NCBI GenBank assembly: GCA_965153455.1
Contig: OZ234493.1
Location: 29,626,213-29,690,212 of the forward strand
Direction of reading: 5' to 3'
Source of the DNA: Sphagnum compactum
Lineage: Eukaryota
DNA length: 64,000 nucleotides
Below the pieces are notes generated by a model. The model was not told the origin of the DNA. It did not search any database and saw only the letters and a program-made list of their open reading frames with translations. The number at the start of each line of letters is the position of its first letter. Within the stretch, counting starts at the first letter, position 1. Positions 7,870 through 44,200 of the stretch are shown in pieces. The position numbers were made by a program, and so were the translations under genes.

Positions 7870-10800
7870 CAGTTGGTGATAGATGAAGGTAATTCTTTCA
7901 AATTGAAAGACCTTAACAAATTAAGTTCCTTGAATGCATTAAATTGGCCAATAAATGTAAGTAATTCCTACAAGCTCATACATTCCCACAATTAAAACTT
8001 TTGGATTGCATTTAATTGGCCAATGTACATGTAAGTAATTCTTGCAAGTTGAAGCATTCACACAAATCAAGATTTTCAAGTGCACTCAATGACTAATAGA
8101 TGAAAGTAGTTTTTTCAAGTTGTGACACCTTAACAAATGAAGCTTTTTTGGAATGTATTCAACTAGTCAATAAATGAAAATAATTATTTCAAGCTAAATC
8201 ACCTTAACAAATGAAGCACTTTGAGTGCATTCAATTCACCCCTAGATGAATGTATTTCTTTCACGATGTTTTCAAGTGGTAAAAATCTTATAAATAAAGA
8301 TTTGTAGTGCTTTCAATTCGCAAATAGATGAAAGTAGGTCTCTCAAGTTGCGACATTCGTACAAATAAAACTTTTGGAGTGCATTCAATTGGCCAATACA
8401 TAAATGTAATTATTTCAAATAGTAACACCTTAACAAATCAAGCTTTTGGATTGCATCCAATTAGCCAATACATGAAGGTACTTCTTTCAAGTTGGAACAC
8501 CCTAACAAATCAAGCTTTTGGATTGCATCCAATTAGCCAATACATGAAGGTACTTCTTTCAAGTTGGAACACCCTAACAAATCAAGCTTTTGGAGTGCAT
8601 TCAATTGACCAATAGATAAAGTTAGTTCTTTCATGTTCAAACACCCTAATAAAACAAGCTCTTGGAGTGCATTCAATTGGCCAATAGATGAAGATACTTC
8701 CTTCAAGTTCGAACATTTTCACAAATCAAGGTCTTGGAGTGCATTCAATTGGCCAATAGATGAAGGTAATTCTTTCAAGTTGGAACACCTCAACAAATCA
8801 AGCGTTTGAAATGCATTCAATTACCAATAGATGAAGGTAGTTCCTTCAAGTTTGAACACCCTGACAAATCAAGCTCTTGGATTCCATTCAATTGGTCAGT
8901 AGATGAACGTAGTTCTTTCAAGTTGGAACACTTCGACAAATCAATCTTTTGTAGTGCGTTCAATTGGCCAATAGATGAAGATACTTCCTTCAAGTTCAAA
9001 GATTTTCACAAATCAAGGTCTTGGAGTGCATTCAATTGGCCAATAGATGAAGGTAGTTCTTTCAAGCTGAAACACCCTAACAAATCAACCTCTTGAAGTG
9101 CATTCAATTGGCCAATAGATGAAGGTAGTTTTTTCAAATTAGAACACCTTGACAAAACAAGTTGTTGTAGTGCGTTTAATTGGCCAATAGATGAAGGTAA
9201 TTCTTTCAAGTTGGAACACCCTAACAAATCAAGCTCTTGGAGTGCATTCAATTGGCCAATAGATGAAGGCAGTTCTTTAAAATTGGAACACCTTCACAAA
9301 TCAAGCGTTTGGAGTGCGTTCAATTGGCTAATAGATGATGGTAGTTCTTTCAAGTTGGAACATTTCGACAAATCAAGCTCTTGGAGTGCGTTCAATTGCC
9401 CAATAGATGAAGGTAGTTCTTTCAAGTCGCAACACTCGGACAAATAAAACTTTTGGAGTGCGTCCAATTTGCCAATAGATGAAGGTAGTTCTTTCAAGTT
9501 GGAACACTTCGACAAATGAAGCTTTTGTAGTGCGTTCAATTGGCCAATAGATGATGGTAGTTCTTTCAAGTTGGAACATTTCGACAAATCAAACTCTTGG
9601 AGTGTGTTCAATTGGCCAATAGATGAAGGTAGTTCTTTCAAGTTGGAACATTTCGACAAATCAAGCTTTTGGAGTGCGTTCAATTGGCCAATAGATGAAG
9701 GTAGTTCTTTCAAGTTGGAACACCCCCCAAAATAAAGCTCTTGGAGTGCGTTCAATTGGCCAATAGATGAAGGTAGTTCTTTCAAATTGGAACAACTTAA
9801 CAAATGAAGCTTTTGGAGTGCGTTCAATTGGCCAATAGATGATGGTAGTTCTTTCAAGTTGGAACATTTCGACAAATCAAACTTTTGGAGTGCGTTCAAT
9901 TGGCCAATAGATGAAGGTAGTTCTTTCAAGTTAGAACACCCTGACAAATCAAGCTGTGAGAGTGCATTCAATTGGCCAATAGATGAAGGTAGTTGTTTCC
10001 AATTGTAACATCCCCGCAAATTAAGCTTTTGGAGTGCGTTCAAGTGGCCAATAGATGAAGGTAATTCTTTCAAATTGGAAGACCCTAACAAATCAAGTTT
10101 TAGGAGTGCGTTCAATTGGCCAATAGATGAAGGTAGTTCTTTCAAATTGGAACAATCCGATAAATGAAGCATTTGGAGTGCATTCAATTGGCCAATAGAT
10201 GAAGGTAGTTCTTTCAAGTTAGAACACCTCCCCAAACGAAGCTCTTGGAGTGCGTTCAATCGCCCAATAGATGAAGGTAGTTCTTTCAAATTGCAACACT
10301 TTGACAAATGAAGCTTTTGGAGTGCGTCCAATTGGCTAATAGATGAAGGTAGTTCTTTCAAATTGGAACACCCCCACAAACGAAGCTCTTGGAGTGCGTT
10401 CAATTGGCCAATAGATGAAGGTAGTTCTTTCAAGTTGGAACACCCCCACAAACGAAGCTCTTGGAGTGCGTTCAATTGGCCAATAGATGAAGGTAGTTCT
10501 TTCAAATTGGAATACCCCCACAAATGAAGCTTTTGGAGTGCGTTCAATTGCCCAATAGATATAGGTAGTTCTTTCAAGTTGGAACAATCCAACAAATGAA
10601 GCTCTTGGAATGCGTTCAATTGGCCAATAGATGAAGGTAGTTCTTTTAAGTAGGAACACCCTCGCAAATGAAGCTCTTGGAGTGCGTTCAATTGGCCAAT
10701 AGATGAAGGTAGTTCTTTCAAGTCGGAACACCCCCGCAAATTAAGCTCTTGGAGTGCGTTCAATTGGCCAATAGATGAAGATAGTTCTTTGAAATTGGAA

Positions 10801-12470
10801 AACTCCCAAAAATTAAGCTCTTGGAATGTGTTCAATTGGCCAATAGATGAAGGTAGTTCTTTCAAGTTGGAACACCCCCACAAACGAAGCTCTTGGAGTG
10901 CGTTCAATTGGCCAATAGATGAAGGTAGTTCTTTCAAGTTGGAACACCCCCACAAACGAAGCTCTTGGAGTGCGTTCAATTGGCCAATAGATGAAGGTAG
11001 TTCTTTCAAGTTGGAACACTCCGACAAATCAAGTTTTTGGAGTGCGTTCAATTGGCCAATATATGAAGGTAGTTCTTTCAAGTTGGAACATTCCGACAAA
11101 TAAAGCTCTTGGAGTGCGTTCAATTGGCCAATAGATGAAGGTAGTTCTTTCAAGTTGGAACACACCCCGAAATGAAGCTCTTGGAGTGCGTTCAATTGGC
11201 CAATAGATGAAGGTAGTTCTTTTTAGTTGGAACACTCCGACAAATCAAGTTTTTGGAGTGCGTTCAATTGGCCAATAGATGAAGGTAGTTATTTCAAGTT
11301 GGAACATTCCGACAAATAAAGCTCTTGGAGTGCGTTCAATTGGCCAATAGATGAAGGTAGTTCTTTCAAATTGAAACACCAATGCAAACGAAGCTGTTGG
11401 AGTGCGTTCAATTGGCCAATAGATGAAGGTAGTTCTTTGAAGTTCGAACACCATGTCAAATCAAGTTTTTGGAGTGCGTTCAATTGGCCAATAGATGAAG
11501 GTAGTTTTTTCAAATTGGAACCCCCCTCCAAACGAAGCTCTTGTAGTGCGTTCAATTGGCCAATAGATGAAGGTAGTTCTTTCAAGTTGGAACACCCCTC
11601 CAAACGAAGCTCTTGTAGTGCGTTCAATTGGCCAATAGATGAAGGTAGTTCTTTCAAATTGCAACACCAACGCAAACGAAGCTCTTGGAGTGCGTTCAAT
11701 TGGCCAATAGATGAAGGTAGTTCTTTCAAGTTGGAACACTCCGACAAATCAAGTTTTTGGAGTGCGTTCAATTGGCCAATAGATGAAGGTAGTTCTTTCA
11801 AGTTGGAACATTCCGACAAATAAAGCTCTTGGAGTGTGTTCAATTGGCATATAGATGAAGGTAATTCTTTCAAGTTGGAACACCCCCCCAAACGAAGCTT
11901 TTGGAGTGCGTTCAATTGGCCAATAGATGGAGGCAATTTCTGACAGCTCGACAAATCAAGTTGTTGGAGTGCATTTAATTGTCCAATAGATGAAGGTAGT
12001 TCTTTCAAATTGGAACACCCCCACAAATGAAGCTATTGGAGTGTGTTCAATTGGCGAATAGATGAAGGTAGTTCTTTCAAGTTGGAACACCATGACAAAT
12101 CAAGTTTTTTGAGTGCGTTCAATTGGCCAATAGATGAAGGTAGTTCTTTCAAGTTGGAACAGTTCGACAAATAAAGCTCTTGAAGTGCGTTCAATTGGCC
12201 AATAGATGAAGGTAGTTCTTTCAAGTCGGAACACCCCCGTAAATTAAGCTCTTGGAGTGCCTTTAATTGGCCAATACATGAAGTTAATTCTTTCAAGTTG
12301 AAACACCCCCACAAAGTAAGCTTTTGGAGTGCATTCAATTGGCCAATAGATGGAGGCAATTTTTTCAATTTCTGACAGCTCGACAAATCAAGCTCTTGGA
12401 GTGCATTTAATTGGCCAATAGATGAAGGTATTTCTTCCAAATTTTGGCATTGTGCCAAATCAAGTACTTG
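7870..12470 (-). repeat. Coding tandem array of ~64 x 72-bp LRR units (LQxLxLxxCSNLKELPSSIGQLNA)
   Basis: The + strand motif caattggccaatagatgaagg recurs every 72 nt from ~8390 to ~12412. One unit near 11940 is 63 nt. Degenerate units continue down to ~7880. Unit count is manual. Confidence 0.95.
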
Positions 12471-15400
12471 TATTTGTAAACAATTAAACAAATTATTTGG
12501 CAACTTTCGAATCATGTAGTTTTTGAAGCACAACCATTTAACCTTATTCAAATTTCTCCCTTGGATGCAATTTTCCACGATAGTTGGTGAAGCTTCTGTT
12601 AGGTCAAGCAACCTGAGGTTGCGAAATCCCTTTAAACTGATTTGAGACAATGTAGGCAACTCGACACATTTTTTCAATGAGATGCCTTCTAAATTCTCCA
12701 TCACCTATCACATGAAATGAAAACAAAAGGATTATCAATACAAAAAAACATTTCATCCTAGCGCCAAATTTATTAGAAAAGCTTGTATTTATAAAATCAA
12801 TATTCCAATTTAAAGCATTTGGTTTTGGACATCAAAAGAAATCATAGGATATCATAATAAAATTATGGATTGAAATAGTATGGTGACAACCTCATCCTTT
12901 TGTAAAAAGAAATTTGACATATTTGATTTCCATATAAATCGATTCATAATTGGAGGTTCCCTTGCAATATATTGACCCATGTCTTGTAATTGTTCATGTA
13001 TGTACAAGATTCCATCTTCTGCCCATTGGACTAAAGATCTATGTTGTAAATTTTGTAATTCAAACCTTGGGTATAAATAATCTCCACTCCACACTCGACA
13101 AATTGTACTTATTTTCAAACCACCCAAAAAACAAGCAATATCCAAAAACATGTTTTGATGTTGCTTATCCAAGTGGTCATAAGAAATTTTCAATACATTC
13201 CAAAGCTCTTCATTATCATTGCCCCCCGTGAGATTTTGCCCACTTTTCAATTTTCTTAATGCACCTTCCCAAATTTCCAATTCTTTAGTATTGCACAAAA
13301 AGGAACCTAATACTTTAAGACTTAAAGGGAGCCCCCCACATGCTTTTATAATCTTCATACATATATCTTTGAAATCCTTTCTTGGAACATGATTTGCATT
13401 ACCGAATGCATGGAACATAAATAGTTCCCTTGCTTGTTTTTCTTCCAAAGATTTCATGACCACTTTTCCATCTTCATTTACATGAGATTTCAAAATTTGC
13501 CAATTTCGACAATTCACAAGTACTTTGCTTTTAGGAGTTGCATTCTTGGTATCAATGAGAAGTTGCAAGGATGTAAGGTTGTCCACTTTACCAACATCAT
13601 CCACCACCACTAACACTTTTTCTGATATCATACATTGCCTAATCCGATCAAGGTCATCTTGATTCACATTTTTATCCTTGCATATCCCACACAAATCATG
13701 TAGGAGTTGTTTTATGACATCGTTGATATTCTCTTTTGATTTCACATCCTCCAAAAAACTAGATTTGTCATATTGGTTGTGGAACAAATGATAAATTTTT
13801 TTGCACAAAGTGGTTTTCCCAATCCCACCCATTCCAACCAAACCAACAATAGATTCCTTTTGTAACAAGATGTTTATGTCTTTTGCTTTGTCAATCAACG
13901 CCACCTCATGATATGGCAAACGTGGAAGCAATATATTTTTCTGTCAAAATTCACAAAATATAGGTCATTTATATGTTATCTTTTTTATTTGATAACCAAT
14001 ATATCTCACATTGCATATGCGATACGCATCAAGTGTGCTATGACCTAATGTGTATCAAATTACATGAACATATATGAAATCAAAAGATTTAAATTTGAAG
14101 TTTTTACCTCCATACATATTTTCAAACATTTTAACAATAAAGAATAACTTGGATGATATTTGTTTGGTGGCTTGCAAATTGTCAAGTGATTAGCATCCTC
14201 AATTTTGTAATGGTTGTTGTTTGACAATTGAATAGCTGAGGCATATGGCACTAAAATTCCCTGCATTTGCAAAAGATTAAGTTAATGGAACTCATTGACT
14301 TGTTTGTTCACTTAGGATTTAACTTATAAGTAATATAGTAATTCCAAATGGTGGTGGAAACTAAGTTTTATAACTATTGATGTTTGAATCATAATGAAAT
14401 ATTTTGTGTAAAAAAAATCCCTTCAACCTTTTGGCAAGCAAATTATATAAATACGTCACAAAGTTATTGGGTTTTAATCTCATTAATCTTACATGTTTTA
14501 ATGATGTTATGATTTTTCATACAAATATTTATATGGAATTGATTTCATGAACAGAAAATTTAAAACCTATTTCCTGATGTTTGAAATCAATCAAATTTCC
14601 TTTCCATCAATAATAATTCATGAAACAAAGTTCATAAAACACATGACCCATTCACCACATTAATATATTTAGAAGTATTGAGTCCTTGATCCCAGACAAG
14701 TTTTGACAATACAAAAAATGTTCAACTATTGAACCAAGTTGGATAACTTTCAATGTGGTGAAATGAAAATCTTACCCAATTCTCGTTGAGTGGTAATCCT
14801 TCGCCAAATGCATAAATGTTGAGGTTTTCACGAGCGGCATTTTTAAAATCCGTTGAAAGGTGCTCCATTTGTGGGTTGAAAGATTTTAAATTTAAAAAAA
14901 AACCAGATTAGGTTGCATACTTGTTCATTGTGTTGATTTGTTGATGTTGCCAAGTGAAATAATTTGATAAAAATTGGGTACCACTAGCATGTGGTACACT
15001 ATAAAATACTACACCTTTAACAGTGTTCAAAAATTTCTTACAACATTTGTGTACTTCATCATCCAAATCATTTCTTAGCCTTTGATGTTCGTGTTTCCAA
15101 GCTTCAACCACCAAGCTTTTGAGTACCAGACCTCCAAAACTATAAGCAACTAATGTCACTGGTCCATCCCAAAGGGATTGATAACTACAAAATATTCAAC
15201 AATGCACCAAAATTTTGTTATCAACATCGCATTAACATGTACAAATTTATCCTATTATATTTGGGGCAATTTTCCAATCTGCACATGACCTAAGCCATAA
15301 ATTCATAATTGATTTGTTCGTCATTTGTCATTTTTCATTTATCGACTCCACTAATCTACCTAAAAAATGTGACAACCATGTTTTGGTAAAACTATTATTA

Positions 15401-16223
15401 TGTACAAGTATGTAGGTGTTTACATTCTTGTGTTAATGTAGAACTCACCTTCTATGTGTTACCTTGGAAATATCGTTGAAATAAGAAGAAATTTGAATTA
15501 AAAAAAGATATACCTTATTTTGGAAATAATGTTTTTGCAATGAAATGGATGCAAATTTTCTACAGATGTATTCATTTAATTTAATTCAATTCAATAGCAT
15601 TACCAAAGATAAAGCTTCAAAAAATACGAATTAAAAATTGTCATGAAAACCAAACTAATTGTACCATGAACTTATAATATGAACATAGACTTTGCTATTA
15701 TCATCAAAGAAGAACATTTGCATTTTAGCACCATTTTCCGTTCTCCTACATGAATCTAACGATTCAAATAAATTGCAACTTGTTGGTGTGTATCACAATA
15801 CTAGCACACATGAACAATTAACTCATGCAAAACATTTAAGTATTTCTAAAGATGTAAACAATTATCTTTAATGTACACAAGGAGAAATAATTAATGTGTC
15901 CATAAATAGAGGAGATTGTCACACCTTGAATTTATAACCAAACTTTGAATGAGGTTTTTGCCAATTTCAGTCACATCATTGTGAACACTTGCCACAATGT
16001 TACAATCATAGGACAATGATAAAATTCGAACATTGTTGTTCAAGTCTTCGGGTAGCCACTTTTCTGGCCAACATATGCACTCTTCTATATTGTTGGTGGG
16101 GCGTGTTGTCCATGTTTCCTTCCATTCATCATTTGTGCCAAAAGCAATCCCATGAAAAAAAATAATGGTCAAGTTTGGATTATCGGAATTGCAAGTGGGA
16201 TTTAAATCATGCACTAGATATTT
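7870..16223 (-). pseudogene. alpha/beta-hydrolase-NB-ARC-LRR (HNL-type) immune receptor, disrupted
   Basis: GT-AG exons join in frame: 16223-15925, 15184-14776, 14260-14108, 13940-12891, 12704-~7870. Hydrolase motifs FFHGI, WPEKWLPEDL, RILSLSYD, AYSFGG, DANHLTICKP. NB-ARC motifs GMGGIGKTT, LVVVDDV, GGLPLSL, FLDIACF, IHEQL, followed by an LRR array. Stops at 14908-10, 12033-35, 11289-91, 11223-25, 9294-96 and 9006-08; 1-nt deletion near 8822. Confidence 0.93.
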
Positions 16224-17229
16224 CTGCAAAGAAAATGAAAATGGGTCAACACAATTCTTCAAACATCTCTTGAAAATTATTTGGCTATACATTAAATTAG
16301 AGAAATGCAATATACAAATTATAGTAGTTAGATAAAGGCAATAATTAATTGAAAAGATTAAGTTTAACAAGAAGACAATAGGAGATGAATTGGAGAATAC
16401 TGAATCTATCTTGCATGACTCACAAATGAAGGTCATTCACATGTGTCATAGACTTCAAAGTTTCAAAACATAGTTCAATAAGTAAATATTGTTGCATAGT
16501 AGGTGGAACTAATGCCAATCAATAAAGGTTAATGCTACGAATTGGATTCTTTCAAGTTTGGGTTGATTAACTAAACCATCTAGTTTGGTTCATTTGTATT
16601 TCATGACATTTTCCCCAACATTTGGGTCAATAAGGCTTCCAACTCCTAAGGAATTGGGACACGAACCCAATAAGAATGTCCAAGAGCATTTTAATAATTT
16701 GCTTTACGTTGTTGGATTAAGACTACACATTGAACTTAGCTCATAATAAAAGTTCCAATCCTTATAAGTTCAATATATTCTTAGTCAATGCCAATTGACA
16801 AATTTCCCTTTCACCAATTCTACTTGTTATAGCAAGTGTAAGAGGCTATAATGATGACCCCATTTCCTATTGTTTTGAACATCATTTCATATTGTTTTTA
16901 TCTAAACAAACAAACTGGAAAGTAGGCAAAGTGAAAATGTATGACAAGGAAGCTTGTAAATGATTGAGGACATTCAGGTACCCTAGTGGCTAAAGGGTAT
17001 GGTTGTGAAGCTGCTGGTTGGGAGTTCAAATCTGAACTAGACCTCTTTCTCCTGATGCTTTGTGAGGACAATAAGCTAACATGGTTGTAAGGGTCAGGGA
17101 AAATTTTCAACACACACCCAACAAAATTAAAAAAAACAAAGTACAATCAAACTTCAACATGTAACTTGGGAAAGCCCAAGAAAAAACTGTGCAAAGAAAG
17201 TTCATCATAAGATTAAGAAGAAGCACCAC

Positions 17230-17382
17230 ATTGCTGTGCCATCCAGAGCTTGAAGGAGCATTTTCAGCATGGACCAAAGGTGTCTCAATCGCAGCAGGGA
17301 AATGCACAACATCTCTCTTTCTTTTTGGTGGCCCTTGTGAAAGATCAACTCCTTTTCCCTTGAGGCCATCTGAACTTCCCAT
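17230..17382 (-). CDS. Candidate first coding exon of the HNL gene (MGSSDGLKGKGVDLSQGPPKRKR...)
   Basis: ATG at 17382 in a more GC-rich stretch upstream of the hydrolase exon, which starts at an acceptor and needs an upstream exon. Possible donor at AATGTG|GTGCTT. Connectivity is unproven. Confidence 0.35.
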
Positions 17383-17466
17383 ATTTTGCACCACTGAAAT
17401 TACTTTTGCTCACTGCTCTCATAAATATTTTTCTCTTAACCTTCTGCTCTCATAAAACCTGCTACA

Positions 17467-20499: not shown

Positions 20500-20831
20500 G
20501 AAACCAAATTCGTGGTGTGCCTGTGTGAAGAGAACCACTTGGTTCATACATACTCAGCTTTCCTCAATGGTGGCAAATCCAACCCTCTCTTCTTCAATGA
20601 GCATTTGATAGCCTTGGACATGACAGTCAAAATGCTCTGCAACTGCTTGGCTTCCTCCTACGAAAGCTGTGGGAAAAAGTTGCACAAGCAAGGTGTACTG
20701 CTGTCTCAGGGGTGGAATCTCAAACTGAGCTCTAAAATCTGTGTCCGCCAGTATCCTCCTTCTCCTCCCCCTGGCAGACTCACCAGCAGCATCTACACTT
20801 TCCATGGCTATGTCTCTGTATTCATAATCAC
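20500..20831 (-). pseudogene. DUF506 (PDDEXK-like) last-exon remnant
   Basis: DYEYRDI...RILADTDFRAQFEI...LFPTAFVG, then after a frameshift LQSILTVMSKAIKCSLKKRGLDLPPLRKAEYM and KWFSSH. This matches the DUF506 signature (DFxxQFEIARP...LPPWRK.EYM..KW). Two frameshifts. Confidence 0.8.
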
Positions 20832-23800
20832 TTGCAGCTGACATCAAACAAAGACAAAATGGTGTGCGGAAAAAGCATGTCAACATTTCTTGCATATTTA
20901 TTGTTCTTGTCAAGCTGAACATCTCAAGATACACATTCACATGCATAGAACTTTGTGAGATCAATGCTGCAAGATTGATTGATTACAGAGAGATTGATCA
21001 ATTACTGAGAGAGATTTTGGCAATCAAAATGGCAAGATGGACATGAACATTGTTTGTGACACAACAGTGAGCTATGGAGTCAAGCAGCTTCCCACTGCTG
21101 CAGGCAGGGTCAGGTTATGATCAGCTCAAGGGTTTGCAAAGATGCAAGAATATTCATGAAGGTAGCAAGTAAGAAATTTCTTTTGTTTGAAATTCAATTC
21201 AATTATTTGTGTCTGCTTTGTGCATATTGAAATAATGCAAGTCAAGCAATTTGAGACTCTCTTATGCGGCCTGGCCCAAGTGATTATTAATTGCATACAC
21301 TACTTTTAAAGGCTCATCCTAGTAATGGCCAAGTTATCATTCCACCTGCAAAGTTTGTGTGCTGCATGGTAAGTATAAAAAGCATCCTGAAACTTATCTC
21401 TACTTCTAAGATGCGGAAACTGGCAGCAGATGTGGTCAATAGTGGTCAGCAGTGAGAAAGGAGGTGCTCTTGTTCCTAGTCATCTCCATGACAGATCTGT
21501 GGCACAACACTTACTAAATTGTTGCAGTAAACCAAAGCCCTCTAGTATTGCTGAAACATGCCTCATTTTGATAAACTCGGTGTTCACATTATGTCATATG
21601 CAGATGAGCCCATTTTGCTGTGGTTGGACTTCACTAAGAAACTATGGTACGCATCATTTCAGATTTCTACTGCTTTGAAGTCCAGGTTCAGCATTGACAA
21701 TTGATGGGACCGAGTTAATAGTCAGGAGAACTGGAGAATACATGCATGGCATCCAAATCTCAATGTTCTGAAAGCCTACTTTGGAAGCATTCTCTATATG
21801 CCAAAATGAGGATTTGGCTGATGTTGGAACAACTGTTCCTGTATTTGATCTTCCTGAGCATCAAGGAGTCTGGTTGCAGAGCTTTCTTCAATAGCAATGG
21901 CTGATCTCTGCTTCTCTTTCTGCTCAAAGCATCCTTATCTGGTTGAGCCCCTGGATACGACTGCGGTACTTAATTGCCATGCAAAGGTAGTAGTACTCTC
22001 TATTGCTGTTTCACAAAAGCAGATGGCCTGCCTATGGGAAGGGAAGGGAGTATCCAATGCAATGCATTTTTCCGCTGCAGTTCCAAACGTTTTCTCTTGT
22101 GAGTCTCTCTCCTGAGAAGCTGCAGAACTCCTAAAGCAAGTTCTGCAGCTTCTCACTGTGAGGAAGATCAAACAATGTTGGAGTTGAGGAGGCTGCTTTT
22201 GAGTCCATTGCCCCCATCATGGGAACTTGTAATGTCGATGATACACTAAATTCAAAAGATGCAGTGAACACTATCATGGAGCTGTTCATCAAAAGATAGG
22301 AGGGGTTTGTGTTGGAAGGCGGGCCTCCGCATCTTTTTGTAGGCATCCACAATATTCATGACTATGTCTATAGAATTAGACATGAGGTTGGAGCGGCACC
22401 TAAGAAACATAATAGGGATGTGCTAAGGTAATGGAGGCAATTGTTCCTGGGACATATTGACAATCAGTTTGCAGGTGATGAATTTGCTCCCTGTTATGTA
22501 TGAGGAGCTTTGAAAACATCCAGAGTTCACATTTGCTATGTGGTGCAGTGAATGAGGTGTTTGAGAGGGAAATTGTAGACTGTGGTGTCCTTGAGATGGG
22601 AACATAGTCACGTCATCCTTGATATGTCAGAGGAAGGTGCAAGAGCTGGCAGTTGAGTGTTTCCTAGACATTTGAGTGTCTGATTGGATAGATCACAGAT
22701 GTTTTCAGGGTCATATTCAAGAACACTGGAATCCTTCTTAATCTGACTCCAAATGGTATAGTGCCAGGGACCTTCATTGCCGTATTTCAAAGCCCATTGT
22801 TGCTTCCTTTAGGGGTTTGATGCCACTTGCAAGTTAGATGTGTGAGAGAGTCTCCATGCAGTTTCAGGTGGGACCTAAATGTCTTGTTTCCCATTTTTTG
22901 ATATCCTTCATATGTGTTTGTGGAGCTGCAAAGTTTGCAATGTGTGGTGTATGTAAGAGAGGAAGTTGGAAAATGGCATGCTGATACCCTCTAGTTTAGC
23001 AAATATCAACATGCAAACCTCCTGTATGCTGAGAAACTGGATATCTTAAAAACCTTAATTGACTTACTCAGGTCACTGAGAGAGAACCAAAATGGCCAGA
23101 CTTTTGTGTGATGTTTGTGCAATGCTCTTAAACCCAGGCCACAGCAAGGTGTTGGGCTTGAGTCATTCAGAATGTGTCATACTTGGTTTGCTGAATGGTG
23201 GTCTCATTTCTTCTTGCACTTGTGACTCCATACTGAAGATTTTAAGTTTTGTCACTCCATCTGTAGAAGTTGCATGGGCCCAGATTGGTCTATATAGACT
23301 GTAAATTGCTGAGACTAGAAGTTTATTGCAAATGATGTAATGTTGCTGGATAACTATTCTTAATGACATTATGCTGTCCAAGCAGGAGAAATATTTTGTA
23401 GTTGTACACAGATGTAGCTTGCCGGAGACACATAGTATATGCTGTTACACCACCAAATATTCTACATAGCAATAGATTGAATTTTTTTGGGATAATGGTA
23501 ATTAACCTTACTATTAATGTGCAACCATGCTTTGAAAATACACTCCTATGCTCGAGAGCTAGGGAAATGAACATGCATGCTAATGAAACACCAATTATGC
23601 AAATCAAGGGCCCATTTTCTATGCTTGAATGGTTTGGCATTAGATTACCTATATTTCGGAAAAACCTATAGGTTTGAGTCTCTTGATTGCAACACATATA
23701 ATATTCACTTTGCAAGAAAATCATCAGAAGCCTCATTAGTATTCCTTATCACCTAAAAAAAGGTGACAATAACAATATAAGAAAATTTTGCTAACTTGGC

Positions 23801-30578: not shown

Positions 30579-31294
30579 TCAGGATTGTGTTGGAGTCTCC
30601 ACAGTGAGAGGGCAGTTGAAAGCTTCAAAGCCGAATTGTTGTACAAAGCAATCGATAAGCTGGTCTGTGACCACCGCTTGCCCTTGCAGCGGATGGGAGG
30701 AAGAGAGTTCCTTGCTGAGAGACGTGACCTCCTTATCGGCGATTCCACAAGGAACGATGTGTTGGAAGAACCTCAAATCCGGAGCTATGTTAAACGCCAA
30801 ACCGTGTGAAGTGATGCTGCCAGAGGAGACTCTGACGCCCACAGCACCGATCTTCTTCCTGTTGTCCGATACCCAAACCCCTGTCTCCTTCACTATTCTT
30901 CCTCTGGCGGTGATGCCATAGAGATGGCACAGTCGGATCATGGTGTCTTCCAAGCCTTCCACGTACTTGCGAACCCCGAGCTTCAAGTTTCTTAGAGACA
31001 GGATAGGATACAGGACTGCCTGGCCCGGGCCGTGGAACGTGATGTCGCCTCCTCTCTCAGTCTGGTGAATCTCGGCTCCCATGCTCCTCACAACGTCAGG
31101 CGTCGACAGAAGGTTGTGTAGCGTCCGACGCTTGCCGACTGTGAAAGTTGGAGGTGCTGCAAACACAAGAGCGTGTCGCAAATCGTGCCTACTCGCCGCT
31201 TCTCTACTAGCTCATTCTGAAGCACAAGTGCCGCTGCGTATTTCACTACTCCCATTCTCCAGATCTCCAATCTCCTCCCTCTCGATGTTGCCAT
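30579..31294 (-). pseudogene. LIP2: Octanoyltransferase LipB/LIP2, intronless, one frameshift
   Basis: ATG at 31294 gives LEIWRMGVVKY...DTLLCLQH in one frame. PPTFTVGKRR...RGGDITFHGPGQAVLYPI...KIGAVGV...TSHGLAFN...IVPCG is in another frame. One base is missing at ~31154 (CAC-CT-CCA). Confidence 0.88.
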
Positions 31295-40664: not shown

Positions 40665-41279
40665 AGGGATACGGAGAAAGGTTCGTGGTGGGAGAATTTT
40701 GATCTTCTTAGAGGAGGAGCAAAACCGACAATTTTGTTCCTCAAGTTGTGGGGATTGTCATACACAAAACTGAATAAATTGCGGCCGTCTCTGTAGCAGT
40801 GGTGGGTTAGGTGCTTCTGGGAGGAAGCTCACTTTCTTTTTAGACTCGTGTGATTGTTGCTTTGCTGATTAAGGTTTCTCACTTTTTGGTTTTCATCAGG
40901 CTATACAAGGAGCCGCCTTCTGAAGATCTGGAGCGGATGAACCTGGAATTCTATAGTCTTTTTTTGTTTCCCTGTTGTTCTTGAATGTTTGTATTGGATC
41001 TGCATCCGAGGAAAGTGGGAGCGGAGGAGGAGGGGAGACGAACCCTATACGTAAATTTGGGTTAGCCTCTGGAATAGTCGGTAGAGATCAAGGTGCAGAT
41101 TTGTATTCTCCTCCGAGCTAGTCCTGGACTCCGGATTCTGTTGAGAGCCTTGTTAGGATTGTAGTCATATGGGTGGATTACCTTAGTTTGGATCAGAGTG
41201 AGCTCTAAGGGTTGAAAGACACGAATTCGAGAGCGTTCCGGATTCAAAGGGCTTTGAAAGCATCCAGGGGAGCTCATCA

Positions 41280-44200
41280 ATGATGGGGAAGCTTTACATG
41301 ACAGGCAAAAGAATGGCAAGGTTCCAAATTTTGGCGCTTGTGTTTGCTATGGTAGCATCGTCGGCGTTGGGAGCCTTTCTAATCGAAGAGAACAGCATCA
41401 CCGTGACCTCTCCTGATAGTTTGAAGGGAACTTACCAAAGCTCAATTGGGAATTTTGGAGTGCCGCAGTATGGAGGCACCCTAGCAGGAACGGTGTTATA
41501 CTTGAAAGATAAGCCAAAGGGTTGTGATCCTTTTGAAGATAGAACCTTTAAAGCAAACAGCGGCGGTCGTCCAGTCTTCGCTCTTGTGGATCGTGGAGGT
41601 TTGTTTTTCTTTGACACTTCGTTTCTGTTTGTTGTTTGTATGACCTTTCTGTTGGAATTTCTACTAGTCTTTCAGAGTTCACTCAAAGTGCTGTAATTGA
41701 GTTTGGCAGATTGTTATTTCACGACCAAGGTGTACCATGCACAGCAAGCAGGTGCAGCAGCAGTGTTGGTTGCAGACAGCAGGACAGAGAGTCTCGTCAC
41801 CATGGATTCACCTGAAGAGAATCCCAGTACAGCAAAGGAAGTTGAGGATATCAACATCCCATCCGCTCTCATCACGAAAGACTTTGGTGACAAGTTGAAG
41901 AGTGCTCTTGAGCACAAGGAATTGGTCAACATGAAACTTGATTGGCGGGAATCACTCCCACACCCAGATGAGCGTGTTGAATATGAATTCTGGACTAACA
42001 GCAATGACGAATGTGGTCCTAAATGCGACGCACAAATTGAATTTGTGAGAAGCTTTAAAGGTGTTGCTCAGATTTTGGAGCGGGGTCAGTACACACTTTT
42101 CACTCCGCATTACATAACATGGTATTGCCCAAAGGCTTTTGTCGAGAGCAAGCAGTGTAAATCACAGTGCATTAACAATGGCCGGTACTGTGCTCCTGAC
42201 CCTGAGCAAGATTTCAACATTGGATATGATGGGAAGCAAGTGGTGACAGAGAATTTGCGGCAACTCTGTGTTTTCAAAGTTGCCACACAGTTGACGACAC
42301 CCAGACCATGGGTATGGTGGGATTATGTCACTGATTTCCAGATTCGTTGCCCAATGAAAGAGAAGAAATATGGGCCAGAGTGTGCAGAGCAAGTTATCAC
42401 CTCATTATGTACGTTTCTTCCTTTCAATACATACAACAGGTTTTCCTGACACTGTATTGTGGAAGTTAAAAGTCCCTTTTTGGTGAGGTTTTGTGTCTGC
42501 TCGTTCAGAATGGGAATTAGACTTGAATGCTAAGAAAGCCAATTTTGATTATGAAATTTTGCTGTGGGATTGCAGCATTGAATCCTTCAGATATCCGTGA
42601 ATGTATGGGCGATCTGACAGTTGATGAAGATAATCCAATTCTAAAAGCAGAGCAAGAGGCACAGGTTGGTTCCTTTCCTTTACTCTTGGAAACTCTCCAC
42701 AGTGATACTTTACAGTATGCTTGCTGTGGTTTCCAACATCATTCTAATACAGATTTGTCCCGATAATAAAAAGCCTTCTAATCTAGCAACTTTCCAAGAA
42801 AAGACATGACAATTGCATATTGGAGCGAGTTTTCTCCTGGCATGTTTTTGCTGCAACAAAGTAACCTTGTGGGCTATGTGCTGGGATCGAAGGAGGAGAT
42901 TAGAATTGAAATTACAGTACAATTGGTGTCAAAAATGCAGTTGATTGCATCACCTAATCCCTTAGACGGTAGAATGCTACAATTATTATATATACTATAA
43001 GGAAATAAAATCCTGCTATGCCACTATGGCCTTATTACTGTTGGTCTGGAGAATGCCTAGAAACCTGTGCAACTACAGATGATATTAAAAACTATGCTCA
43101 GCCTGTCGATGAGATTCATGGATATTGTAACAAGACCTGTATTGTTGATGGCACTCACCAATATGATATTCTCGGTACAGTTCTGCAGTTCTTCCTGTCT
43201 GTATGATGGTGAAGCATCATGCATTGATGTTCATTTTGGTTAGGGCATTGACAAATCTGTGTTTGGCTGTCAGGTTGGGAAAGGTGATCGTGGTGATGTC
43301 ACCATTTTGCCAACACTTGTCATCAACCAACGGCAGTACCGAGGTTGGTGTGATTTCGGCCCTTCATCTTGTTTACCAGGTGTTGCAATGACAAAATGCA
43401 AGCATGAAATGGGCATGAAGGCTGACCAAGAAAGTTTCTGATTTTCAGAGTCTAACATATTCAAACTAATACAACCTAAACCTGACATCACCTATCCTGA
43501 TATAGCTGCACAGAACCAAATTCTAAGTAGTACGTACCTTTCTGTATAATTTGGTCTTGCAGGAAAGCTGGAGAAGGCAGCCGTGACTAAGGCTATCTGT
43601 TCAGGTTACAAGGAGACCACAGACCCACCCGTGTGTTTAAGTCAAGGTAATCATCATCAAACTTATCCTCTTGATATGTTTGAACCTTGCATGCAAAGTT
43701 CTCATCTTGAAGAAATTCACAATGTCAATGTACAATCGCTGCTAGTGGATGTATAGTGTTATGTGTAATAAAACGCAAAATTGTCTTTTTCTCCTTTTCC
43801 CACCTGGATATTCCTTATTTCCCTGGTATTGAATAAAACCATGCAATGAAACAGAAAAGTTGGAATCTAGGGTCTTTTGACAGGAGTCTTTCCTTGAGAT
43901 TTTGCAGCTGTTGAGACAAATGAATGCCTCAGCAACAATGGTGGATGCTGGCACAAGGGTAATATTACAGCATGCAAGGTACAATGACACCTTCTCATCT
44001 GTCCCAACTCCTGAAACAGCCATTCAACAGACTTGGGCAGGCAGTTGCTGCAACTGAATAGTGACACTGGAATTTGGTTATTTGGTTGCTGAGTTCACGT
44101 GCAACATATTTGTGTGTCACTGTAAAAGTAGTTGTTGTAGAACTTGAACTCAAGATTTTCAGAATAGGGGGAGTTCTGGACTACCAAACAGACTGAGATG

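Follow-up and report, generated by a model that had tools for sequence, protein, structure and literature searches.

Hydrolase-NLRs, immune receptors in which an alpha/beta-hydrolase domain stands where the receptors of flowering plants have a TIR or coiled-coil domain, have been published for bryophytes, Sphagnum included, under the names HNL (Xue et al. 2012, PMC3352924) and Hyd-NLR (Chia et al. 2024, PMC11218826), and Sphagnum has been named in print as a genus rich in them. The class is a main open item in plant NLR biology; according to papers on it, no enzymatic activity or substrate is known for any member. Two Hyd domains from Marchantia have been found to cause HR-like death and ion leakage in Nicotiana benthamiana. 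A related arrangement exists in fungi, where sesB-like domains occupy the N-terminus of a STAND NTPase, and a sesB-related fold in a bryophyte NLR has already been remarked upon (Dyrka et al. 2014, PMC4986451).

In this study we analysed a window of 64,000 nucleotides from Sphagnum compactum, in which an earlier, sequence-only reading had noticed a lipase-like alpha/beta-hydrolase as the N-terminal domain of an NLR. That reading had stated that hydrolase-NLRs are reported from bryophytes, which the published record bears out, and that their substrate and signalling output are unresolved, in agreement with a literature that still describes their biochemistry as unknown. We find that the locus is a real gene of a known class, one stop-interrupted copy of a large, described Sphagnum family, and that it adds no new class. 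As a member of the hydrolase-NLR family this copy is probably dead, and the account that we consider probable for the locus as a whole is that of a hydrolase-NLR family gene of which this particular copy was recently inactivated.

Exon structure and transcript joints

The gene lies on the minus strand (Table 1). Its five exons from exon 0 to the NB-ARC exon, joined at GT..AG borders, give 2064 nt, or 688 codons, in one frame that contains one stop. The order of the encoded parts, alpha/beta-hydrolase, NB-ARC and LRR in one frame, is that of the described HNL and Hyd-NLR proteins. The introns between hydrolase and NB-ARC, between NB-ARC and LRR, and between exons C and D within the hydrolase domain are all in phase 0, as are the hydrolase|NBS and NBS|LRR introns of HNL, which likewise has one more inside its hydrolase domain (Xue et al. 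2012, PMC3352924).

Table 1. Features of the hydrolase-NLR locus, in window coordinates
Feature	Position	Strand	Details
Exon 0	17230..17382	-	ATG at 17382; 51 codons (MGSSDGLKGKGVDLSQGPPKRKRD...GWHSN); phase-0 GT donor after 17230
Hydrolase exon A	15925..16223	-	strand beta3 and FFHG oxyanion-type motif (FFHGI), His75 codon 16154-16152; phase 2 at end
Hydrolase exon B/C (one exon)	14776..15184	-	elbow AYSFGG (Ser166 codon 15141-15139); FYSVPHAS with VPH (His216)
Exon B/C, 3' part		-	cap helices, then FGEGL (Glu279 codon 14802-14800)
In-frame TAA, codon 243	14908..14910	-	within exon B/C; homologs have Gln (KYATQSGF), P0012 has His
Hydrolase exon D	14108..14260	-	strand beta8; EDANH (Asp309, His312 codon 14188-14186); motif DANHLTICKP; phase 0 at both ends
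Exon D, 3' part		-	C-terminal helix, which is the linker to NB-ARC
NB-ARC exon with winged-helix domain	12891..13940	-	P-loop GMGGIGKT, Lys380 codon 13817-13815
First LRR stretch	12033..12704	-	223 codons, after a phase-0 intron; ends at first in-frame stop 12035-12033
LRR tandem array	8302..12440	-	57.6 units of 72 bp, i.e. 24-residue LRRs, consensus ...CSNLKELPSSIGQLNALQEL.L (Tandem Repeats Finder, translation, tblastn)

Exon 0 was located by tblastn with residues 1-51 of an intact Sphagnum homolog (P0012), and residues 152-287 of the same protein gave a single match at 15183-14776; B/C is one exon, and homologs are read without a break across it. The sequence-only reading had placed three exons upstream of NB-ARC, spliced in frame. 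The in-frame GT..AG splicing stands, and the count is four, exon 0 with its ATG, which lies beyond the interval marked in that reading, having been overlooked, as was the in-frame TAA of exon B/C. Public gene models for the orthologous locus begin within intron 0, so the real first exon is missing from them as well. The four motifs quoted in that reading (FFHGI, AYSFGG, FYSVPHAS and DANHLTICKP) are all found on the minus strand inside the interval given for the domain, both ends of which proved to be exact splice sites: an AG acceptor directly precedes 16223, and a GT donor directly follows 12891, where the NB-ARC exon ends. A tRNA-like stretch in intron 0, at about 16975-17045, was noted by eye; ARAGORN finds no tRNA anywhere in the window.

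RNA-seq had been proposed as a check of the junctions. Exact joints in RNA contigs back four of the five introns between exon 0 and the first LRR exon, the hydrolase-to-NB-ARC intron among them; the contigs are short (72-182 nt among those listed), mostly 95-99% identical to the window and may derive from paralogs, and the joints are flanked by sides of 21-29 letters, flagged as weak. Exon 0 is joined to exon A (17230|16223) in contigs from X1, X2 and X3, and exon A to exon B/C (15925|15184) in contigs from X3 and X6, while one contig each, both from X6, joins exon D to NB-ARC (14108|13940) and NB-ARC to LRR (12891|12704, cut +2). The joint of exon B/C to exon D (14776|14260) was not found exactly in the RNA contigs, which in X1 and X2 hold an inexact joint, 14789|14258.

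Family, fold and candidate active site

Exon A matched 161 proteins at E<=0.001 among 197 candidates, with identities of up to 98%, which places the hydrolase exons far beyond chance, and all of the exon A matches that bear an organism name are from Sphagnum. Among 120 proteins listed, 28 combine the elbow, the P-loop and at least three LRR motifs. The sequence-only reading had called for an intact paralog, and intact Sphagnum homologs do exist, such as P0012, which is 95% identical to the window's exon A over 97% of that exon. TIR and CC domains are absent from the family, the hydrolase domain taking the N-terminal position, and fusions of this hydrolase module with kinase, caspase (metacaspase-like), lectin and U-box modules occur as well. 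The family extends to liverworts: the Marchantia Hyd-NLR P0282 aligns with P0012 collinearly over residues 69-962 (E 3e-74, 27% identity). Differences from the described HNL and Hyd-NLR proteins include the elbow, mostly GHSFGG in liverworts but AYSFGG in the Sphagnum clade, and the separate first exon of the Sphagnum clade with its basic PPKRKRD stretch, as well as, in this copy, the premature stop and the 57.6-unit LRR array.

The NB-ARC exon matches Pfam NB-ARC (9.1e-33) and WHD_ROQ1 (5.6e-12), and the LRR part matches LRR_14 (2.1e-27 for the first LRR stretch, and 2.2e-107). Compared with solved relatives, the NB-ARC is closest to Roq1 (6.2e-39), followed by RPP1 (8.3e-23) and MLA13 (1.6e-17), and judged by these best solved relatives it is of the TIR-NLR type, near to which the NB-ARC of HNL and Hyd-NLR proteins has also been placed. 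The likeness to the TIR-NLR resistosomes Roq1 and RPP1 covers both NB-ARC and winged-helix domain; unlike TIR-NLRs, the locus has no TIR, and the intron at the domain border is in phase 0, where TNLs are described as having phase 2 (Xue et al. 2012, PMC3352924).

Assignment of the hydrolase part to a family relies on the intact homologs, because the window exons scanned singly gave no Pfam hydrolase family at cut-off (DUF676 at 12.3 bits, E 0.12); with the stop read as X they gave no DUF676 match. DUF676 (PF05057, putative serine esterase; cut-off 20.3 bits) is the only hydrolase family reached by the intact Sphagnum homologs, five of eight passing (25.1, 23.1, 20.7, 26.9 and 25.8 bits) and three falling below (15.6, 19.0 and 16.4 bits); the scores are thus close to the cut-off, and the matches span no more than about positions 33-154 of the 217 in the profile. 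For PGAP1 (PF07819, cut-off 24.3 bits), three distant relatives come close at 23.6, 24.1 and 23.6 bits; within the E-value limits used, the Pfam scan did not list it for the eight Sphagnum homologs or the window exons, and precomputed PF07819 matches are listed for Marchantia P0282 and for fungal proteins. Some Marchantia and Riccia relatives are called 'protein SERAC1' by their sources, which reflects labels rather than sequence comparison.

That the domain would model as an alpha/beta-hydrolase was confirmed with the intact homolog by AlphaFold2, Foldseek and structural alignment. The AlphaFold2 model of P0012 residues 52-347 has a pLDDT of 82 and a pTM of 0.86, and Foldseek returned at least 500 matches at E<=0.001, which among those listed are overwhelmingly alpha/beta-hydrolases. 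A sequence search of the PDB with the domain profile gave a best E of 0.012, and as this match spans the elbow only, there is no close relative among solved structures. In the model, S115 follows strand 109-114, E228 ends strand 222-228 and H261 follows strand 253-257. This places Ser after beta5, Glu at the end of beta7 and His after beta8, corresponding to the window codons Ser166, Glu279 and His312; the histidine in DANHLTICKP, named beforehand as the candidate catalytic residue, thus occupies the canonical catalytic position. Ser is found in 64 of 65 complete domains (one has Cys) and Glu in all 65, a set whose selection pattern itself demanded the His. Asp309, in EDANH, was considered as the catalytic acid and is likewise found in 65 of 65, yet a Marchantia member has His at this position and the fungal protein P0292 has Asn, and we therefore prefer the Glu at the end of beta7.

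The presence of these residues raises the question of whether they are used. The domain may instead work without catalysis, as a scaffold or as a module binding a small molecule or lipid, in the manner reported for the lipase-like EDS1 family; the oligomer would then make an interaction surface. EDS1 retains a triad of Ser, Asp and His, yet its immune function does not require it. We regard this as unlikely, though it is the strongest of the alternatives. In its favor, the elbow departs from the canonical G-x-S-x-G, reading A-Y-S-F-G in 76 of 79 Sphagnum-clade elbows (120 proteins) and G-H-S-F-G in more distant relatives, and some relatives carry Cys, Gly, Lys, Asn or Asp in place of the nucleophile. 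A-x-S-x-G elbows are, for their part, present in some active lipases. Membrane or lipid binding and EDS1-like roles are both named as options in a review. Against it, mosses and liverworts alike show the near-invariant Ser and Glu along with the FFHG oxyanion-type motif, which is the pattern that an active site under purifying selection would leave, and the fungal protein has motifs that align with these. A catalytic domain remains our preferred reading.

The sequence-only reading had likened the motifs to SesB- and PGAP1-like domains, and the resemblance is one of real homology: the bryophyte profile aligns over 242 columns with the N-terminal domain of P0292, a NACHT-WD40 protein of Aspergillus nanangensis (hhalign probability 99.7%, E 4.1e-26), and the fungal proteins P0292-P0294 are found by HMMER at 2.1e-8 to 3.1e-6. 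The whole domain is homologous, with FxHG, GHSxGG, PHxG, F.E and NH..ICK shared. The fungal receptors differ in combining NACHT or NB-ARC with WD40, ANK or TPR, whereas those of Sphagnum combine a plant NB-ARC with LRR.

Among solved structures, the best match in two VIA-align runs is phospholipase PlaB of Legionella pneumophila (PDB 6zth, 6zti), which has an alpha/beta-hydrolase domain of lipase type. It aligns with the P0012 model at Z 18.3 (rmsd 3.0, 225 aligned), the next entry having 16.9, and an independent wide search gave Z 17.7 (rmsd 3.1, 230 aligned); PGAP1/Bst1 (8k9t) also aligns, with Z 14.4. As PlaB outscores generic hydrolases by only 1.0 to 1.4 Z, it offers a lead on substrate class and not a family assignment. 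It is bacterial, 14% identical and outside any NLR, and its activity is reported to be governed by oligomeric state, dissociation of the tetramer switching it on. For the family, these comparisons provide three handles: Ser, His and the Glu at the end of beta7 as key residues, rather than the Asp beside the His; a phospholipase as the nearest solved fold; and firm homology to the sesB-like/PGAP1-like N-terminal domain of fungal NLRs.

State of the copy in the window

An intact open reading frame, as expected of a working member, is not present in this copy. The TAA at codon 243 precedes the Glu and His codons and maps to the cap loop that connects strands beta6 and beta7, where the model has low confidence; a product ending there would have 242 residues and lack Glu, His, NB-ARC and LRR. 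The LRR array carries six further in-frame stops, beginning at 12035, 11291, 11225, 9296, 9008 and 8819, with the frame lost past 8819; a protein ending at the first of these would still have a normal-length LRR. Removal of the TAA by splicing was considered and rejected: the sole GT..AG pair available flanks a stretch of 58 nt, a length not divisible by three, and homologs are read without a break here. Apart from the TAA, comparison of conserved columns revealed no decay in the hydrolase part, which departs from the Sphagnum consensus at 4 of 149 columns (homolog median 2; 17 of 59 homologs differ equally or more). The locus is thus most likely a pseudogene, inactivated by a stop of CAA-to-TAA type together with the six LRR stops and the frame loss, and recently so because so few conserved columns depart from the consensus. 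For the front of the gene, the call rests on one stop codon, as read in the assembly.

An alternative is a copy that is still functional, in which the TAA would be an assembly error or a segregating allele and the protein would end at 12035, or in which the truncated product would be useful. We consider this improbable. The low decay, within the range of the homologs, would fit a functional copy, as would the fact that every splice site is intact and that one codon is the sole defect between the ATG and 12035. Matching spliced contigs are present in RNA libraries, and annotated homologs (e.g. P0001 and P0014) likewise finish in frame-shifted LRR sequence. However, the TAA stands in the sequence as given, no other letter at 14910 occurs among the RNA differences listed, the 58-nt pair offers no way around it, and the product that ends at the stop lacks the parts named above. 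Recent inactivation is therefore retained as the preferred reading of this copy.

Predicted action of intact relatives and wider reading

For the intact relatives, which the sequence-only reading had suggested may be ligand-activated lipid hydrolases, we tentatively propose a course of events to which we attach slightly less than even confidence. The LRR would sense a pathogen-derived cue, and the NB-ARC would oligomerise, as in TIR-NLR resistosomes. By analogy with the known resistosome structures, the receptor may form a tetramer. Once clustered, the N-terminal domains would function as a serine hydrolase with a Ser-His-Glu triad and cleave an ester, for which a membrane lipid is the most plausible candidate, with cell death as the outcome. 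An integrated decoy, in which the hydrolase would be a copy of an effector-targeted host hydrolase and thus a bait instead of the receptor's signalling part, would suit the expansion of integrated domains among the NLRs of Ceratodon and Sphagnum and the fusions of the module to other domains, but is very unlikely in view of its executor position at the N-terminus throughout a family without TIR or CC, of the HR-like death for which isolated Marchantia Hyd domains suffice, and of the homologous domain at the same position in a fungal NLR.

Extending the catalytic proposal further, the bryophyte Hyd domain and the fungal sesB-like domain may be one ancient NLR executor shared across kingdoms, a suggestion that we regard as doubtful at present. 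It would be a phospholipase-type enzyme with a Ser-His-Glu triad, here replacing TIR on a TIR-NLR-type chassis, that would be switched on through clustering by a STAND NTPase. The cell would die either from its attack on membrane lipids or through a signal that it frees from lipids. If this were true, the fusions to kinase, metacaspase-like, lectin and U-box modules would mark a general effector cassette for death or defence.

As for the N-terminus itself, the N-myristoylation pattern of PROSITE matches both this copy (MGSSDGL) and 21 of the 38 Sphagnum proteins that have the true first exon. It was rejected as a conserved membrane anchor, not being a feature of the family: 13 of the 38 Sphagnum proteins have no Gly2, and it fits just 6 of 43 liverwort relatives. 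Six others of these 43 show a hydrophobic N-terminus.

Exon structure and splicing of the hydrolase-NLR gene

The locus is a receptor gene ordered hydrolase, TIR-NLR-type NB-ARC and LRR, with conserved Ser, His and Glu at the canonical positions. The original observation is confirmed, and its structural reading is right. Hyd-NLRs as a class, and their occurrence in Sphagnum, have been published before, which bears out the statement that such receptors are reported from bryophytes: they were defined as HNL in Marchantia, and thought liverwort-specific, by Xue et al. 2012 (PMC3352924). Chia et al. 2024 (PMC11218826) catalogued them across non-flowering plants, drawing on proteome data for S. fallax and S. 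magellanicum, mention Sphagnum hydrolase-NLRs, and describe two Marchantia Hyd domains that elicit an HR-like death, with ion leakage, in N. benthamiana. A 2023 review names Marchantia, Sphagnum and Ceratodon as the genera where the hydrolase domain is most frequent, and calls its biochemistry unknown. Our literature searches on Hyd-NLRs, Sphagnum NLR-hydrolases and cell death by Marchantia hydrolase domains from 2024 onward found no test of catalytic mutants or substrate.

The sequence-only reading had three exons upstream of NB-ARC splicing in frame, over an interval that runs exactly from an acceptor end (16223) to a donor end (12891). These three exons do join in frame and carry all the motifs quoted for them, but the AG acceptor immediately upstream of 16223 means that an earlier exon must exist, and a fourth, ATG-bearing exon was located. 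Joined by coordinates with a script, the five exons from exon 0 to NB-ARC form a single reading frame of 688 codons (2064 nt) that is interrupted once, by a stop at codon 243. In Pfam the NB-ARC scores 9.1e-33 and a winged helix of the Roq1 type 5.6e-12, and LRRs are matched as well. A second NLR within the 64-kb window was not seen by tblastn with P0012, an intact Sphagnum homolog.

Coordinates of the hydrolase-NLR exons and of other features in the window
Feature	Position	Strand	Remarks
Exon 0	17382-17230	-	ATG start, phase-0 GT donor; tblastn with intact homolog
Exon A	16223-15925	-	canonical GT..AG borders; FFHGI
Exon B/C, single exon	15184-14776	-	canonical GT..AG borders; AYSFGG, FYSVPHAS
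In-frame TAA in exon B/C	14910-14908	-	
Exon D	14260-14108	-	canonical GT..AG borders; DANHLTICKP
Exon E, NB-ARC	13940-12891	-	canonical GT..AG borders
LRR exon	starts 12704	-	canonical GT..AG border
LRR array	8302-12440	-	57.6 units of 72 bp, 85% matches, no indels (Tandem Repeats Finder)
ORF over LRR array	10672-11103	+	opposite strand to the array
ORF over LRR array	11320-11823	+	opposite strand to the array
Intron-derived ORF	15891-16436	-	MTFICESCKID...
tRNA-like stretch, intron 0	~16975-17045		
PDDEXK_6 ORF	20554-20982	-	6.1e-8
Lipoyl ligase A/B catalytic domain ORF	30579-31211	-	2.3e-32
Vacuolar sorting receptor ORF	41202-42449	+	VSR_TRX 4.7e-70, PA 1.2e-10

RNA supports most of these junctions. 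Each of 24 runs, 18 of them recorded as RNA, contains 0.30-0.35 of the sampled words of 12800-17450, and we compared contigs from four metatranscriptome runs, each of a different study (X1, X2, X3 and X6), with the locus. The joint 17230/16223 occurs exactly in contigs of X1, X2 and X3, and 15925/15184 in those of X3 and X6, while 14108/13940 (side 24) and 12891/12704 (side 21, cut +2) were each matched exactly in one X6 contig; the C/D joint (14776/14260) had no exact match in the contigs of the four runs. An alternative exon 0 donor at 17227, 3 nt from 17230, was seen in all four runs, and the two donors, both present in RNA contigs, correspond to homologs with HSNVK and HSNK. Since these contigs are short, and most of them 95-99% identical, paralogs may be their source; they demonstrate this pattern of splicing for genes of the kind in Sphagnum RNA, not expression of the locus itself.

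Exon 0 encodes MG..(S/D)G.K.KGVDLSQGPPKRKRD. A basic PPKRKR-like stretch lies within the first 40 residues in 38 of 120 homologs, 21 of which also have a myristoylation-like start and 13 of which lack Gly2; this N-terminus may serve in nuclear or membrane targeting.

Fold, active site and family of the hydrolase domain

For P0012, residues 52-347 were modelled with AlphaFold2 from a 19-row alignment (mean pLDDT 82, pTM 0.86). Structure searches with this model place the domain in the proposed alpha/beta-hydrolase fold. Foldseek matches at E<=0.001 numbered 500 or more, and the listed ones were overwhelmingly alpha/beta-hydrolases (thioesterases, lipases, esterases, monoglyceride lipase); VIA-align against 48,161 representative chains gave 430 with Z>=8, led by Legionella PlaB (Z 17.7, rmsd 3.1, 230 aligned), with PGAP1/Bst1 at Z 14.4. 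PlaB again came first in a second comparison, over the Foldseek top 1000 (Z 18.3 and 18.1, next 16.9). By sequence, no relative of the domain was found among solved structures (best E 0.012).

In the model, strand 109-114 leads into Ser115, strand 222-228 has Glu228 as its last residue and strand 253-257 precedes His261. These residues (Ser166, Glu279 and His312 in the window) sit where the fold canonically has its nucleophile, acid and histidine. A set of 65 complete domains, 59 of them Sphagnum-type and the other 6 distant, was selected on His261 and the FFHG motif, so that conservation there carries no weight; in this set Ser is conserved in 64 (one Cys), Glu in all, Asp258, which adjoins His261, in all, and the VPH-motif residue His165 in 64. 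Glu is the likelier catalytic acid, since Asp258 is replaced by His in a Marchantia member and by Asn in the fungal protein, both of which retain Glu. The Sphagnum elbow reads AYSFGG in 76 of 79 recognisable cases, and most of the more distant relatives have GHSFGG.

Exon B, used as query in an exhaustive HMMER search, returned 114 representatives, of which the more distant proved on look-up to belong to liverworts (Calypogeia, Marchantia and Riccia). The Calypogeia member, searched in turn, returned 47 proteins, including Marchantia Hyd-NLRs, some labelled 'protein SERAC1' by their source, and at its tail three NACHT/WD40-type proteins, two named as fungal. P0012 aligns end to end with the Marchantia Hyd-NLR P0282 (E 3e-74). 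The sole Pfam hydrolase family reached was DUF676, whose cut-off (20.3 bits) is passed by five of eight intact Sphagnum homologs, but the window exons on their own fall below every Pfam hydrolase cut-off, DUF676 included; PGAP1 lies narrowly below its cut-off in three distant relatives. The resemblance suggested to fungal SesB-type, PGAP1-like domains of NLRs proves to be homology, since the bryophyte alignment, compared profile to profile with the N-terminal part of P0292, a fungal NACHT-WD40 protein, matched it at a probability of 99.7% (E 4.1e-26, 242 columns). A sesB-type link, to a domain related to SERAC1, had already been drawn for a bryophyte NLR (Dyrka et al. 2014, PMC4986451).

Introns of the locus are in phase 0 at the hydrolase/NB-ARC and NB-ARC/LRR borders and inside the hydrolase domain, in agreement with the phase-0 introns, at both domain borders and within the hydrolase domain, that mark the HNL class (Xue et al. 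2012, PMC3352924). Its NB-ARC matches Roq1 best (6.2e-39) and RPP1 next (8.3e-23), both more strongly than the CC-NLR MLA13 (1.6e-17), in keeping with published accounts that set most Hyd-NLRs of bryophytes next to TIR-NLRs (Chia et al. 2024, PMC11218826; Xue et al. 2012, PMC3352924).

For intact members we tentatively propose, as a possible rather than a probable course, that LRR-mediated recognition would free the NB-ARC switch, that the receptor would then oligomerise, and that the clustered hydrolase domains would turn active on an ester substrate. Roq1 and RPP1 are known to form tetramers. The substrate would most plausibly be a membrane lipid, given that the phospholipase PlaB is the nearest solved fold, that a helical cap lies between beta6 and beta7, and that lipase kinship is published for sesB/SERAC1-type domains (Dyrka et al. 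2014, PMC4986451). A non-catalytic scaffold or ligand binder is an unlikely role for a domain with this Ser and Glu conservation, and an integrated decoy a very improbable one.

Probable inactivation of the window copy, and Sphagnum relatives of the gene

Where the TAA interrupts exon B/C, homologs continue uninterrupted with ...NKYATQSGF..., and an intron removing it was rejected, as the GT..AG pair around the stop spans 58 nt, not a multiple of three. Its position falls in a low-confidence cap loop between beta6 and beta7 of the P0012 model, upstream of the Glu279 and His312 codons, and a product stopping there would retain Ser while losing the rest of the active site, NB-ARC and LRR. Six further stops start at 12035, 11291, 11225, 9296, 9008 and 8819 in the LRR frame, which is lost after 8819. 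The hydrolase part otherwise showed no decay: 4 of 149 columns conserved at >=90% differ from the Sphagnum consensus, against a homolog median of 2, and 17 of 59 homologs differ as much or more. The window copy is therefore most likely a recently inactivated pseudogene, a reading that for the front part rests on one stop codon in the given assembly; a still-functional allele is distinctly unlikely.

The LRR array has more than twice the maximum of 23 units of the same motif among 120 listed homologs, which may reflect either a genuine expansion by unequal crossing-over or an effect of the assembly. The long ORFs on its opposite strand and in its other frames (SSWSAFNWPIDEGSSFKLEH..., FQLERTTFIYWPIE...) are by-products of the 72-bp repeat; the public homolog models P0001 and P0014 terminate in such shifted-frame text.

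Of 197 candidate proteins for exon A (99 residues), 161 matched at E<=0.001, and every organism named among the 120 matches listed is Sphagnum (identity 72-98%). By simple motif counts over these 120, 28 have elbow, P-loop and at least three LRR motifs, 32 elbow and P-loop, 16 the elbow only and 5 other combinations; the remaining 39 are short fragments that lack all three motifs. P0003, P0004 and P0007, whose N-terminus is the window's intron-derived ORF, appear to represent this locus in S. troendelagicum, S. tenellum and S. fallax, with gene models that begin within intron 0; these models miss the true first exon and treat intron 0 as coding, and that of P0007 also omits exon D, while that of P0004 continues beyond the NB-ARC donor. 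Also in intron 0, RNA-library contigs lie on a stretch that is tRNA-like by eye; a scan of the whole window by ARAGORN yielded no tRNA, and the stretch may be a repeat element.

Elsewhere in bryophytes the hydrolase module occurs fused to other partners (P0074, P0202, P0225, P0184, P0234, P0258, P0259, P0269, P0270, P0271 and P0276): protein kinase in Sphagnum, caspase p20 in Marchantia, B-lectin in Marchantia paleacea and Calypogeia and, from precomputed Pfam, a U-box in Calypogeia.
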